Origin: Clostridium sp. CAG:710
Lineage (GTDB): Bacteria; Bacillota_I; Bacilli_A; RF39; UBA660
Direction of reading: 5' to 3'
Assembly: GCA_000432595.1 (NCBI GenBank)
Contig: HF996867.1
Span: 1,551-65,550 of the forward strand
Length of the DNA stretch: 64,000 nt
Shown here: positions 17,329-37,332 of the stretch, piece by piece
Layout: each line of letters begins with the position of its first letter
How positions within the stretch are numbered: position 1 is the first letter of the stretch
Made by a program: the position numbers and the translations under genes
Notes under the pieces: generated by a model
The model's input: only the letters and a program-made list of their open reading frames with translations
The model's database searches: none
What the model was told of the DNA's origin: nothing

Positions 17329-17607
17329 TTGACAACAAGAAAAGAATTTACTATAATCTAGTCAAACGATGAACAAAAGAAGTAACAATAGATTCTTTTA
17401 TAGAGAGTTAGTGATTGGTGTAAACTAACAAAGATATATTGTGAATAACATTTGTGAGTGCTTAAAGAAATTAAGTAAACTAAGCCGTATATCTACGTTA
17501 CAGATAAGAGTGATCAATTTTGATAACTAGGGTGGTACCGCGGATTCAACAGTTATTCGTCCCTTATGGGATGTTTAACTGTTTTTTTTAATTTTAGGAG
17601 GGTAAAT
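17329..17607 (+). promoter_or_regulatory. promoter (TTGACA-18-TATAAT) plus T-box riboswitch leader for asnS
   Basis: conserved T-box sequence AGGGTGGTACCGCG at 17529-17542; terminator/antiterminator hairpin and T8 run at 17548-17590 immediately before asnS RBS. Confidence 0.8.
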
Positions 17608-18990
17608 ATGTTAGATGTAAAAGATTTATATGAAAAACTAGATGAATATTTAGGCAAAGAAGTAACATTACAAGGATGGATAAAAAACCATAGAAAACAA
17701 AAAGAATTTGGATTTATTGATTTCTCAGATGGAACATATTTTAAACATGTTCAACTAGTATATGATAACAACCTAACCGATTTTGATACTATTCAAAAAT
17801 ATCATATTGGATGTGCAATAACTGTAGTAGGAGAAGTAGTAACTTCAGAAGGCGCTGGTCAAGAGTTTGAGGTTAAAGTAAAATCTATAAAACTAGAAGG
17901 AGATTGTCCTGAAGATTATCCAATGCAACCAAAACGTCATTCAATGGAATTCTTAAGAGAACAAGCCTATCTAAGACCAAGAGTAAATTTATTTCAAGCA
18001 GTATTTCGTATAAGAAGCGTCGCAGCTCATGCAATACATGAATATTTTCAATCACATAATTATGTATATGTTCACACTCCATTAATCACAACCGCAGATT
18101 GTGAAGGTTCAGATCAAATGTTTAAAATAACCACATTAGATTTAAATCATCTACCAAAAACAGAAGATGGAAAAGTTGATATGTCAAAAGATTTATTTGG
18201 AAAAACTGCTTTTGTAACAGGTACAGGTCAATTACATGGTGAAGCTTTCGCAATGGCATTCAAAAAGATTTATACATTTGGACCAACCTTCAGAACAGAA
18301 AAATCAAATACAAAAACACACGCAAATGAATTTTGGATGATAGAACCAGAAATAGGATTTTGCGATTTAAATGGATTAATGGATGTAGAAGAAGAAATGT
18401 TAAAATTTGTTGTAGGATATGTACTAGATAATTGTAAAACTGAGATAGAATTCTTAGATAAATTTGTTCAAAAAGGCCTAAAAGAAAAATTAGAAAAACT
18501 AGTAGGTTCTAAATTCACAAGAATTACTCATCATGATGTTATAGACATACTAAAAAAAGCAGATGTAAAATGGGAATTTACTCCAGATTATTCTTCTGAT
18601 ATCGCAAAAGAACATGAAAGGTATATTACTGAATATTTTAATGGACCAGTATTTATAACAGATTGGCCAAAAGATATAAAAGCATGGTATATGAAAGTTA
18701 ACCCAGATAATAAAACAGTTGCCGCAGTTGACCTAGAAGTCCCAGGAGCTGGAGAATTAATGGGTGGATCACAACGTGAAGAAGATTATGATAAATTAAT
18801 CAAAAGATGTAGAGAAATGAATGTTGACTATGATACAGTTGATTGGTTCTGTAATCTAAGAAAATTTGGAGGATGTTACCACTCTGGATTTGGTATGGGA
18901 TTTGAAAGATTGCTAATTTATCTAACAGGTGTAGAAAATATTAGAGATGTAATTCCATTCCCAAGAACACCAGGAAGCTGTGATTTTTAA
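17608..18990 (+). CDS. asnS: asparaginyl-tRNA synthetase
   Basis: class IIb aaRS motifs FRTEKSNTKTHANEFWMIEPE, GSQRE, GFGMGFERL; aggagg RBS; ORF-track upstream extension overlaps the T-box terminator. Confidence 0.85.
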   Translation: MLDVKDLYEKLDEYLGKEVTLQGWIKNHRKQKEFGFIDFSDGTYFKHVQLVYDNNLTDFDTIQKYHIGCAITVVGEVVTSEGAGQEFEVKVKSIKLEGDCPEDYPMQPKRHSMEFLREQAYLRPRVNLFQAVFRIRSVAAHAIHEYFQSHNYVYVHTPLITTADCEGSDQMFKITTLDLNHLPKTEDGKVDMSKDLFGKTAFVTGTGQLHGEAFAMAFKKIYTFGPTFRTEKSNTKTHANEFWMIEPEIGFCDLNGLMDVEEEMLKFVVGYVLDNCKTEIEFLDKFVQKGLKEKLEKLVGSKFTRITHHDVIDILKKADVKWEFTPDYSSDIAKEHERYITEYFNGPVFITDWPKDIKAWYMKVNPDNKTVAAVDLEVPGAGELMGGSQREEDYDKLIKRCREMNVDYDTVDWFCNLRKFGGCYHSGFGMGFERLLIYLTGVENIRDVIPFPRTPGSCDF

Positions 18991-28336: not shown

Positions 28337-28975
28337 ATGATAAATAAACAAAATTTATGGTTTTTGACATTATTTAGTTTGATACTAGTATTAAGCGTAT
28401 ATTATGTAACAATGCCAAATGATTTACTGTTAACAAATAATGGTGCGGTAGGCTCTAAGAAAAATGAACAAACAAGCGTGTCAAAAGATACAAATACAGA
28501 CACAACTAAAAATGAAGATACAAAAAAAGATGATATGAAATCTACAACTACAAAAGATAATAAAGATAATAAAGACACAAATACAACCACAAAAGATAAT
28601 AAAGATAATAATACAACAGTCACAATAAAAGAAAGTGAAACACTAGAGGCATTAAGAGTAAGCTTAAATCAAGAACGAGAAGCAGAAAAGACAAAATTAC
28701 AATCTCTTCTTACTAATAGTTCAGCTACTAGTGAAGAAAAAAATAATGCCTATGAGAAATTACAAGAAATAAATACTGTGACAAGTGAAGAGGCAACTCT
28801 AGAAAAAAAATTAAAAGAAAAATATAAAATGTCAGTATTCGTAAAAATAGAAAATAAAGAAATTACAGTAGTAGTTGATAATGATAAACATGATACAACA
28901 CTTGCGAATAACATAATGAGAAGTGTACAAGAAAATTTTAAAGAAAAAAGATATATAACGGTACAATTTAAATAG
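28337..28975 (+). CDS. SpoIIIAH-like sporulation membrane protein (detached from any spoIIIA operon in this window)
   Basis: N-terminal TM, polar linker, C-terminal SVFVKIENKEITVVVDND...RSVQENF...ITVQFK matching SpoIIIAH/YscJ-like C-terminus. Confidence 0.45.
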   Translation: MINKQNLWFLTLFSLILVLSVYYVTMPNDLLLTNNGAVGSKKNEQTSVSKDTNTDTTKNEDTKKDDMKSTTTKDNKDNKDTNTTTKDNKDNNTTVTIKESETLEALRVSLNQEREAEKTKLQSLLTNSSATSEEKNNAYEKLQEINTVTSEEATLEKKLKEKYKMSVFVKIENKEITVVVDNDKHDTTLANNIMRSVQENFKEKRYITVQFK

Positions 28976-29072
28976 CGCAAAGCTATTTTTTTGGTTAAAC
29001 ACCCTCAACTAAAATGTACTACAACATAGAATATTATGAGACAAAATATATAAAAGAGAGAGGGTTGAATTT

Positions 29073-29276
29073 ATTAAAGGAATATTAACACTTCGTGAAA
29101 GAGAAGTTTTTGAACTTTTGATTCAAAATTACAGTACAAAAGAAATCGCATCGAAATTAAATATTAGTGAAAAGACCGTCAGAAATCATATATCAAATAC
29201 AATGCAGAAACTTGGTGTAAAAGGAAGATCAGGAGCAGTAGTAGAATTATTAAGATTAAAGGAACTTTCGTTGTAA
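29073..29276 (+). CDS. gerE: GerE-type LuxR-family sporulation transcription factor, apparently initiating at ATT
   Basis: translation ..LTLREREVFELLIQNYSTKEIASKLNISEKTVRNHISNTMQKLGVKGRSGAVVELLRLKELSL is near-colinear with B. subtilis GerE; no in-frame ATG/GTG/TTG between upstream TGA (29037) and the HTH; RBS agagaggg 9 nt before ATT 29073. Confidence 0.55.
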   Translation: MKGILTLREREVFELLIQNYSTKEIASKLNISEKTVRNHISNTMQKLGVKGRSGAVVELLRLKELSL

Positions 29277-30324: not shown

Positions 30325-30401
<77 letters not shown>

Positions 30402-30475: not shown

Positions 30476-31231
30476 TTGAAAAGAATAAAATTAAAGAAAA
30501 ACACTAAATTAAAACGTATAAAAATATTTATAATAATTATTATAAGTGCCATCATATTTGCACTAGTACAAGTAGAATATGTAGCAAAAAAAGTTGAAAA
30601 AAAATTATTCACATTCGCAGAAATAGAAGTAAATAAATTATCAAAAGCAATAGTTAATCAAGCAGTAAATGATGTAATAGCTAATAAATTTGCTGATGAA
30701 GACTTATTTGAAATAGGAAAAAACTCTAATGATGATATTCAAATAGTAGACTTTAACCCCCAAAAAGTTAATTTAATATTAAACGCTATAAATGAAAATA
30801 TAAACTCTTATTTTGAAAGGTTAGAAAATGGTGAAAAAGCTATATTAGATATAAAAAGAAACACTATAACAAATACTCTAATAAATACTAACAAAAAAGG
30901 GGTAGTATTTGAACTACCTATTGGTATGGTAAGCAATAATGCTTTTTTATCAAACCTAGGGCCAAAGATTCCTGTTAGGGTATCACTAAATGGAGAACTA
31001 GAGTCATGTATAAAAACAAGAGTAGAGAACTACGGGATAAATAATGCAGTTATAACGGTATATGCTTATATAGAAGTTAGTGAACAAATTCTACTTCCAA
31101 TAACCAGTAAAAAAATAACAATAAAAAATGAAATTCCAATATCAATAAAAATGATGCAGGGGAATGTTCCTAATTACTATTTTAATGGATTAAATACAAC
31201 CTCAGATATCAAAACCTTTTCAACAAAATAA
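30476..31231 (+). CDS. yunB: sporulation protein YunB-like
   Basis: TTG start with ggtga RBS; basic N-terminus, TM helix, then YunB-like region FAEIEVNKLSKAIVNQAVNDVIANK. Confidence 0.5.
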   Translation: MKRIKLKKNTKLKRIKIFIIIIISAIIFALVQVEYVAKKVEKKLFTFAEIEVNKLSKAIVNQAVNDVIANKFADEDLFEIGKNSNDDIQIVDFNPQKVNLILNAINENINSYFERLENGEKAILDIKRNTITNTLINTNKKGVVFELPIGMVSNNAFLSNLGPKIPVRVSLNGELESCIKTRVENYGINNAVITVYAYIEVSEQILLPITSKKITIKNEIPISIKMMQGNVPNYYFNGLNTTSDIKTFSTK

Positions 31232-35050: not shown

Positions 35051-35127
35051 GGGCGATTAGCTCAGTTGGTTAGAGCACTTGCCTTACAAGCAAGGGGTCA
35101 TAGGTTCGAGTCCTATATCGCCCACCA
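35051..35127 (+). tRNA. tRNA-Val (TAC)
   Basis: hand-folded cloverleaf; anticodon stem cttgc/gcaag, loop cttacaa; CCA-encoded. Confidence 0.85.
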
Positions 35128-35133
35128 TTAAGT

Positions 35134-35209
35134 GCCGAAATAGCTCAATTGGTAGAGCAACTGATTTGTAATCAGTAGGTTACGGGTTCAAGTCCTGTTT
35201 TCGGCACCA
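35134..35209 (+). tRNA. tRNA-Thr (TGT)
   Basis: acceptor gccgaaa/tttcggc; anticodon stem actga/tcagt, loop tttgtaa. Confidence 0.8.
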
Positions 35210-35216
35210 TTTTTGT

Positions 35217-35300
35217 GGAGAGGTAGCGAAGTGGCTAAACGCGGCAGACTGTAAATCTGTTCCATTTGGTTCGATGGTTCGAATCCATCTCTCTCCACCA
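35217..35300 (+). tRNA. tRNA-Tyr (GTA), long variable arm
   Basis: acceptor ggagagg/tctctcc; loop ctgtaaa; extended variable arm typical of bacterial Tyr. Confidence 0.8.
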
Positions 35301-35307
35301 CGTATTT

Positions 35308-35382
35308 TGCCTCGTAGCCAAGCGGTAAGGCACGAGACTTTGACTCTCGCATGCGCTAGTTCGAATCTAGCCGAGGCAGCCA
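35308..35382 (+). tRNA. tRNA-Gln (TTG)
   Basis: U1-A72 acceptor tgcctcg/cgaggca; anticodon stem cgaga/tctcg, loop ctttgac. Confidence 0.8.
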
Positions 35383-35388
35383 TTTATT

Positions 35389-35464
35389 GTTCCGCTAGCT
35401 CAGTCGGTAGAGCATTTGACTTTTAATCAAAGGGTCTGGAGTTCGAATCTCCAGCGGGACACCA
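35389..35464 (+). tRNA. tRNA-Lys (TTT)
   Basis: acceptor gttccgc/gcgggac; anticodon stem tttga/tcaaa, loop cttttaa. Confidence 0.85.
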
Positions 35465-36695: not shown

Positions 36696-36784
36696 GCCTG
36701 AGTGGCGGAATAGGTAGACGCACAGGACTTAAAATCCTGCGAGATTCAACCCTCGTGTCGGTTCAAGTCCGACCTTAGGCACCA
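36696..36784 (+). tRNA. tRNA-Leu (TAA), long variable arm
   Basis: anticodon stem cagga/tcctg, loop cttaaaa; long extra arm. Confidence 0.8.
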
Positions 36785-36788
36785 TTTT

Positions 36789-36881
36789 GGAGGAATACCC
36801 AAGTCTGGTTGAAGGGACCGGTCTTGAAAACCGGAAGGTCGTGCAAGCGGCGCAGGGGTTCGAATCCCTTTTCCTCCGCCA
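36789..36881 (+). tRNA. tRNA-Ser (TGA), long variable arm
   Basis: acceptor ggaggaa/ttcctcc; anticodon stem ccggt/accgg, loop cttgaaa. Confidence 0.8.
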
Positions 36882-36894
36882 ATTTGATTTATAT

Positions 36895-36971
<77 letters not shown>

Positions 36972-36973
36972 AT

Positions 36974-37049
36974 GGTCTCGTGGTGCAGTGGCTAACACGT
37001 CTGCCTGTCACGCAGAAGATCGCGGGTTCAATCCCCGTCGAGACCGCCA
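36974..37049 (+). tRNA. tRNA-Asp (GTC)
   Basis: acceptor ggtctcg/cgagacc; anticodon stem tctgc/gcaga, loop ctgtcac. Confidence 0.85.
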
Positions 37050-37057
37050 TTTTTTTT

Positions 37058-37132
37058 GGCTCTGTAGCTCAGTCGGTAGAGCAAGGGACTGAAAATCCCT
37101 GTGTCGATGGTTCGATTCCATTCGGAGCCACC
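37058..37132 (+). tRNA. tRNA-Phe (GAA)
   Basis: acceptor ggctctg/cggagcc; anticodon stem aggga/tccct, loop ctgaaaa. Confidence 0.85.
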
Positions 37133-37172
37133 ATTAAATTGTTATCTAAGAGGAGTTTTCCTTTTATATGAT

Positions 37173-37250
37173 TGCACCCATAGCTCAATTGGATAGAGCG
37201 TTTGACTACGGATCAAAAGGTTATGGGTTCGACTCCTATTGGGTGCACCA
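37173..37250 (+). tRNA. tRNA-Arg (ACG)
   Basis: acceptor gcaccca/tgggtgc; anticodon stem tttga/tcaaa, loop ctacgga. Confidence 0.8.
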
Positions 37251-37255
37251 TAATT

Positions 37256-37332
37256 CGGGAAATGGCTCAACTTGGTAGAGCACTTGGTTTGGGACCAAGG
37301 GGTTGCAGGTTCAAATCCTGTTTTCCCGACCA
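37256..37332 (+). tRNA. tRNA-Pro (TGG)
   Basis: acceptor cgggaaa/tttcccg; anticodon stem cttgg/ccaag, loop tttggga. Confidence 0.85.

Follow-up and report, generated by a model that had tools for sequence, protein, structure and literature searches.

AUU and AUA initiation codons, which are discriminated against by IF3, are used in Escherichia coli by infC and pcnB (PMC5499595). Ribosome profiling of Staphylococcus aureus revealed conserved AUU (cvfC1) and AUA (ccpN, infC) starts with extended Shine-Dalgarno sequences on small regulators; the non-canonical start of ccpN is common to S. aureus and B. subtilis, and AUU or AUA starts in S. aureus reporters give about 10% of the AUG output (PMC13009471). 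The gerE locus analysed here resembles infC and pcnB of E. coli and cvfC1, ccpN and infC of S. aureus and B. subtilis in combining a conserved AUU/AUA codon at the start position with a long Shine-Dalgarno sequence and a small regulatory protein as product. In contrast to these genes, gerE acts in the sporulation cascade and not in translation or central metabolism, and its AUU is specific to one clade and not family-wide, the sister clades having ATG, GTG or TTG; its start is a prediction from sequence. Literature searches revealed no paper on a non-canonical gerE start. The ATT start as such is already annotated by NCBI, in two MAGs of the same species (e.g. L081:3001).

B. subtilis GerE (PDB 1FSE) is a sigma-K-dependent late mother-cell regulator. 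The GerE encoded in the window (the whole 64-kb stretch of DNA that was analysed) shares with it the single-domain LuxR/FixJ-type helix-turn-helix architecture of about 70 aa, and both genes are preceded by a CATA---TA -10 element with an upstream AC. The proximity of gerM, which lies 1-2 kb downstream of gerE in Bacillaceae, is a further likeness. Bacillaceae gerE has a weak TTG start in at least 17 of 20 loci (among L048-L078), with an in-frame stop a few codons upstream. The window gene differs from B. subtilis gerE in having ATT and not TTG as its putative start and in a spacing of 15 nt and not 17 nt between the -35 and -10 elements. Its product lacks 7 residues at the N-terminus, a feature shared with the ATG-started relatives in the lineage, and would be only a putative regulator of coat and late sporulation genes.

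The host of this gerE is an uncultured, low-GC human-gut member of the Bacilli (26% GC in the window). The related genomes are MAGs of uncultured gut bacteria that bear the label "Bacilli bacterium"; some are mislabelled Tenericutes or Mycoplasma. One relative with gerE and gerM, L022 (OZ006981.1), is a circular chromosome of 1,309,958 bp, and contigs of 1.27-1.36 Mb bear other homologues. For a lineage in which sporulation genes are retained, such a genome would be very small.

Translation of the frame 29040-29276 (+) yields DKIYKRERVEFIKGILTLREREVFELLIQNYSTKEIASKLNISEKTVRNHISNTMQKLGVKGRSGAVVELLRLKELSL, followed by two stops and preceded by an in-frame TGA (29037-29039). The sequence-only reading of this DNA had recognised a near-perfect GerE in this frame, and database comparison bore this out. 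Residues 2-67 align to residues 9-74 of 1FSE with E=2.2e-26, and identity to GerE from Bacillaceae loci is 73-79%. The PF00196 GerE domain is recorded on the orthologue from the same species. Together with the close similarity to characterised GerE, this domain places the predicted product in the single-domain GerE class of about 70 aa. Counted from the ATT, the 67-aa product is colinear with the 67-68 aa products of ATG-started relatives. The features of the locus are listed in Table 1.

Table 1. Position and basis of assignment of features at the gerE locus (window coordinates).
Feature	Position	Strand	Basis
SpoIIIAH-domain protein, upstream neighbour, 212 aa, low-complexity T/K/D/N-rich middle	28337..28975	+	ORF; PF12685 SpoIIIAH on same-species orthologue in L081
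Weak terminator-like element between upstream gene and gerE, TAGC-GCAAA-GCTA hairpin then T7	28973..28992	+	Read from sequence; under terminator-scan threshold
C(T/G)CAAC box, candidate -35 element (AC of sigma-K promoters)	29004..29009	+	Found in 11/11 ATT/ATA-clade species, always exactly 15 nt 5' of CATA
CATAGAATA, candidate -10 element	29025..29033	+	Matches sigma-K consensus CATA---TA
TATGAG just 3' of the -10; its ATG (29036-38) opens a 5-codon out-of-frame ORF	29035..29040	+	Conserved in relatives
Shine-Dalgarno sequence AGAGAGAGGG	29055..29064	+	Predicted duplex with 16S 3' end, -11.6 kcal/mol
ATT, inferred initiation codon	29073..29075	+	Colinear with starts of relatives; clade conservation; constraint boundary; NCBI gene call
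gerE coding sequence, 67 codons + TAA, stand-alone LuxR/FixJ-type helix-turn-helix protein	29073..29276	+	1FSE match; PF00196; dN/dS
In-frame TTG, opens the 52-aa ORF found by ORF finders, not a start	29118..29120	+	Inside helix 1; TTG in the window's species only
GerM-like protein (Germane domain), downstream neighbour, 308 aa	29322..30248	+	PF10646 on orthologue; served as phylogenetic marker
Sporulation protein YunB	30476..31231	+	TIGR02832 spo_yunB, E=7.9e-40, over curated cut-off

The gene lies in a sporulation-gene context, being flanked by the genes for the SpoIIIAH-domain, GerM-like and YunB proteins; a YutD-like protein is also encoded among its neighbours. The same gene order is found in L081, L085, L086, L087 and L088. 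The SpoIIIAH-domain protein is 12 residues longer in the window than in the MAGs of the same species (212 versus 200 aa), and the alignment breaks at the repeat, around 28572-28582. The window also contains 13 tRNA genes (30325-30401, 35051-35464, 36696-37332), among them two clusters and an isolated tRNA-Arg(TCT) gene located between gerM and yunB; a listed ORF (36809-37171), probably spurious, overlaps the second of the clusters. A T-box leader (17360-17567; 139.5 bits) lies directly 5' of a class II (Asp/Lys/Asn-type) aminoacyl-tRNA synthetase gene at 17566-18990.

No canonical in-frame start is present between the TGA at 29037 and the conserved GerE domain. The sequence-only reading had gone further and stated that no in-frame ATG, GTG or TTG follows this TGA at all. 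This holds up to the conserved domain, but not within it, where the TTG at 29118 and an internal Met ATG are both present inside the helix-turn-helix. Because of this TTG, the ORF list shows only a 52-aa fragment of the gene. The codon at this position is TTA or CTA in the 10 other species of the clade described below. An alternative genetic code with TGA read as Trp, prompted by the Tenericutes/Mycoplasma labels, was considered and rejected: reading through the TGA at 29037 still exposes no ATG, GTG or TTG back to the TAA at 29010, and the window is closely packed with long table-11 ORFs.

Re-reading of the coordinates showed that the positions first given for the ribosome-binding site, the ATT (29073), the ATA (29082) and the TGA (29037) were correct. 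The Shine-Dalgarno sequence AGAGAGAGGG is separated by 8 nt (29065-29072) from the ATT. A stronger compensating Shine-Dalgarno sequence was not seen in the ATT clade, with a median predicted duplex energy of -11.6 kcal/mol versus -12.5 kcal/mol in ATG-type relatives. No Rfam hit indicated a leader regulatory RNA at the locus, and the fold of the leader (29038-29115) was not better than that of shuffled sequences (z = -0.97).

Comparison with species representatives and database contigs revealed a non-canonical codon at the same position in ten further species: ATT-AAA in L085, L086, L087, L088, L005, L007, L008, L009 and L018, and ATA-AAA in L022. With the window's own species included, the clade has ATT in 10/11 species and ATA in 1/11. 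In all ten further species this codon follows the GAGG/AGGG core of a Shine-Dalgarno sequence at 6-8 nt, a working distance like that in the window. Eight of the 11 species have no in-frame ATG, GTG or TTG between the nearest upstream stop and the ATT/ATA; the distance to a stop is only 6-7 codons in L018 and L022. In other relatives the site, or the codon before it, is ATG (44 loci), TTG (5 loci) or GTG (5 loci). The alignment is exact where L050, L076 and L080 (ATG-AGA-GGA-ATA-TTA-ACA) are set against ATT-AAA-GGA-ATA-TTA-ACA, the two stretches being colinear codon by codon.

Phylogenetic conservation of the non-canonical codon is seen in its restriction to a single clade, in a dN/dS of about 0.11 for the gene and in a constraint boundary at the codon itself. 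In a neighbour-joining tree of the GerM protein the ATT/ATA loci form one clade (bootstrap 89/100). Within this clade, identity to the window's GerM is only 39-48%, and the ATT state is therefore old. The TTG loci of five uncultured-lineage species (L015, L019, L023, L034, L043) form a clade of their own on the same tree (bootstrap 95/100). Since TTG is found in Bacillaceae as well, and the TTG species of the uncultured lineage group together, the type of gerE start codon behaves as a clade-level trait. Pairwise Nei-Gojobori comparison of gerE within the ATT clade gave a median pS of 0.54, a median pN of 0.09 and a dN/dS of 0.11, with synonymous sites close to saturation; gerE in this clade is under strong purifying selection. 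From codon 0 (the ATT) to codon +16 the residues are almost invariant while their codons vary synonymously (the Arg at +7 is encoded by CGT, CGC, AGA or AGG). At codons -1 to -8 the number of different residues ranges from 2 to 6 (with 5 at each of codons -1 and -2), and stops occur. The onset of aa constraint coincides exactly with the ATT. That the third base of the ATT is conserved is not diagnostic alone, because the Ile codon at +3 is conserved to the same degree (ATA in 10/11 species).

Within the species, ATT was found in 19 of the 20 other assemblies (2 NCBI MAGs, 16 gut-metagenome contigs and 1 short contig), and in 18 of the 20 the promoter, Shine-Dalgarno sequence and ATT are identical to those of the window. 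Among these are the two NCBI MAGs, L081 and L082, with 99.3% nt identity. GCA_029226995.1 and GCA_034179745.1 are MAGs of the same species. The metagenome contigs were retrieved with a probe of 35 nt from gerE codons 8-19, so that the start codon lay outside the probe; it returned 16 contigs with 16 different assembly accession numbers, and the ATT region was identical in 16/16. Variation among these 16 contigs in the region is confined to the loop of the terminator-like element or its T-run. The short contig (L084, 678 bp) keeps the ATT and carries one G-to-T change in the Shine-Dalgarno sequence that turns AGG into ATG. This change (L084:75-90, corresponding to 29061-29063 in the window) creates a new in-frame ATG four codons 5' of the ATT and weakens the ribosome-binding site; it is also the source of a 71-aa protein in the databases (P0001).

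The remaining same-species contig, L083 from sample ERZ27233097, has a canonical ATG at gerE behind a different upstream sequence. From 29075 onward it shows 99.1% nt identity to the window, and its GerM is 100% identical at the aa level. The upstream 150 nt are unrelated to those of the window; they bring a -10 element of their own, CATAAAATA, and end in a canonical ribosome-binding site plus ATG-TCT-AAA-GGT, as seen when L083:1-175 is set against window 28920-29095. Within gerE, the breakpoint falls in codons 1-9, and only 149 nt of contig precede the gene. No significant match to this segment was detected in any fetched locus. L083 is either a recombinant ATG allele or an assembly chimera, and in neither case does it represent a point correction of the ATT. 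An ATG-started gerE allele may, given L083, exist and be tolerated in the species.

Gene callers disagree on the start of gerE, which bears on whether another codon in the same frame could be used, namely the ATA at 29082, an upstream ATA at 29046 or the TTG at 29118. In the sister species, NCBI places the start at the upstream ATA in L085 (L085:1501) and, in L087, at a CTG that adjoins the ribosome-binding site (L087:1501), so that its calls for the orthologues are discordant (ATT, ATA, CTG); other gene callers over-extend gerE to 71-99 aa in the databases, and ORF finders return the ORF opened by the TTG. The ATA at 29082-29084 is in frame and conserved as Ile, but it is an unlikely start because of its distance of 17 nt from the ribosome-binding site. 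The ATA at 29046 precedes the Shine-Dalgarno sequence, lacks one of its own and, in L018 and L022, is separated from the gene by stops, and the CTG of L087 leaves no space at all between itself and the Shine-Dalgarno sequence. Initiation at the TTG, a codon unique to the species, would remove the conserved LTLREREVFEL helix, which is under purifying selection. We consider a start at any of these codons improbable. The comparative data argue that the homologous ATT is the start in all orthologues despite the discordant NCBI calls.

In B. subtilis the sigma-K consensus consists of AC, 16-17 nt and CATA---TA. The sequence-only reading had pointed to a SigK-like -10 element upstream of gerE with candidate -35 AC dinucleotides at 15 and 22 nt, and both positions are correct: upstream of CATAGAATA, the distance is 15 nt to the dinucleotide at 29008-09 and 22 nt to that at 29001-02. 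The shorter of these spacings falls outside the 16-17 nt of the B. subtilis consensus. It is nevertheless invariant in the ATT clade, where all 11 species share the arrangement C(T/G)CAAC-N15-CATAnnATA, and where 39-40 nt separate the end of the -10 from the ATT. A single CAAC-N15-CATAnnnTA is present in the 64-kb window, compared with 0.22 expected occurrences. Among related loci of the uncultured lineage, CATAnnnTA was found 5' of gerE in 60/60 and an AC at 15-17 nt in 57/60; the corresponding upstream sequence in the B. subtilis group is AC-N17-CATATGATA. Scans detected no sigma-70-like promoter 5' of gerE and, by the criteria of the scan, no terminator around the gene. Judged by motif conservation, the upstream element is probably a sigma-K-type promoter.

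The TATGAG that follows the -10 is kept across most of the uncultured lineage (L001-L047), more than the sigma-K consensus requires, and may belong to the transcription-start region or serve as a regulator site. Its conservation would also fit a reading in which the true start is the promoter-proximal ATG at 29036, giving a protein of about 78 aa, with the window either frameshifted or subject to programmed frameshifting. Database entries of 78-80 aa (P0006-P0008, P0094) do start there and read in frame through the ribosome-binding site, because callers use this ATG where it is in frame. In the ATT clade this is the case in 2/11 species only (L086 and L088, where it is also open); in the other clade species it is out of frame or blocked by a stop. 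Being only 2 nt past the -10, the ATG probably lies 5' of the transcription start. It has no Shine-Dalgarno sequence, and the extra residues that would be encoded from it show no conservation. All 19 assemblies of the species with ATT share the frame of the window, since their sequence from this ATG to the start is identical apart from the one substitution in L084. Initiation at this ATG is thus highly unlikely.

The chance that a sequencing or assembly error produced the ATT, or that a recent start-codon lesion has left gerE a pseudogene here, is close to negligible: the absence of a canonical start and the single ATG contig L083 would speak for it, but L083 differs by its unrelated 150-nt upstream segment and not by a point change at the ATT, nearly all same-species assemblies and ten other species share the ATT/ATA state, substitutions are strongly biased towards near-saturated synonymous sites, and a shared systematic artefact is implausible across 16 assemblies with different accession numbers. 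Of the two outcomes first envisaged for this gene, a rare non-AUG start and a start-codon lesion, alignment with relatives favours the former (ATT in the species and in nine others, ATA in one). The lesion is contradicted by the fixation of ATT in the species, by the single clade on the gerM tree and by the strong purifying selection.

Taken together, we regard it as likely that the window encodes a functional gerE with a probable sigma-K-type promoter of its own, that translation most likely starts at the AUU at 29073, and that this AUU was inherited within the clade. On the comparative evidence, the putative AUU start is an inherited trait of the whole clade and not a lesion. Transcription would proceed from CTCAAC-N15-CATAGAATA, and the initiator tRNA would then decode the AUU, positioned by the long Shine-Dalgarno sequence 8 nt upstream. 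The predicted product is a protein of 67 aa with the N-terminus fMet-Lys-Gly-Ile-Leu-Thr. By analogy with the described AUU/AUA genes, the AUU should cut GerE synthesis to a fraction of the AUG level and confer sensitivity to IF3. We infer the use of the AUU as the actual start codon, the dependence on sigma-K and the reduced or IF3-gated expression from these comparisons. The gene for IF3 itself, infC, was sought as a possible second gene with an ATT start but was not found in the window: neither four ORFs of 168-180 aa nor 26 other ORFs scanned encode IF3.

Weak gerE starts are found in several groups: nearly all Bacillaceae and one uncultured clade have TTG, scattered loci have GTG, and the ATT clade has AUU/AUA. 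It is conceivable, though rather doubtful, that selection has favoured weak initiation as a design feature of gerE throughout the spore-forming Bacilli. The AUU would in that case couple GerE synthesis to the stringency of IF3, GerE would accumulate only once initiation fidelity relaxes late in the mother cell, and translation would act as a delay or gate on the step from sigma-K to GerE.

The locus adds a clean case, supported by phylogeny, of probable AUU initiation in the gene for a late-sporulation master regulator, from an abundant uncultured lineage of the human gut. It also shows how easily such a gene escapes annotation, as gerE is missed or truncated (52 aa) by ORF finders or over-extended (71-99 aa) in databases. 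Because gene callers miss, truncate or over-extend the gene, or disagree on it, surveys of sporulation genes in gut MAGs could wrongly score gerE as absent or broken. For the biology of the family, the weak start codon suggests that the dosage of GerE is kept low by start-codon choice, which would match the conserved TTG start of gerE in Bacillaceae.
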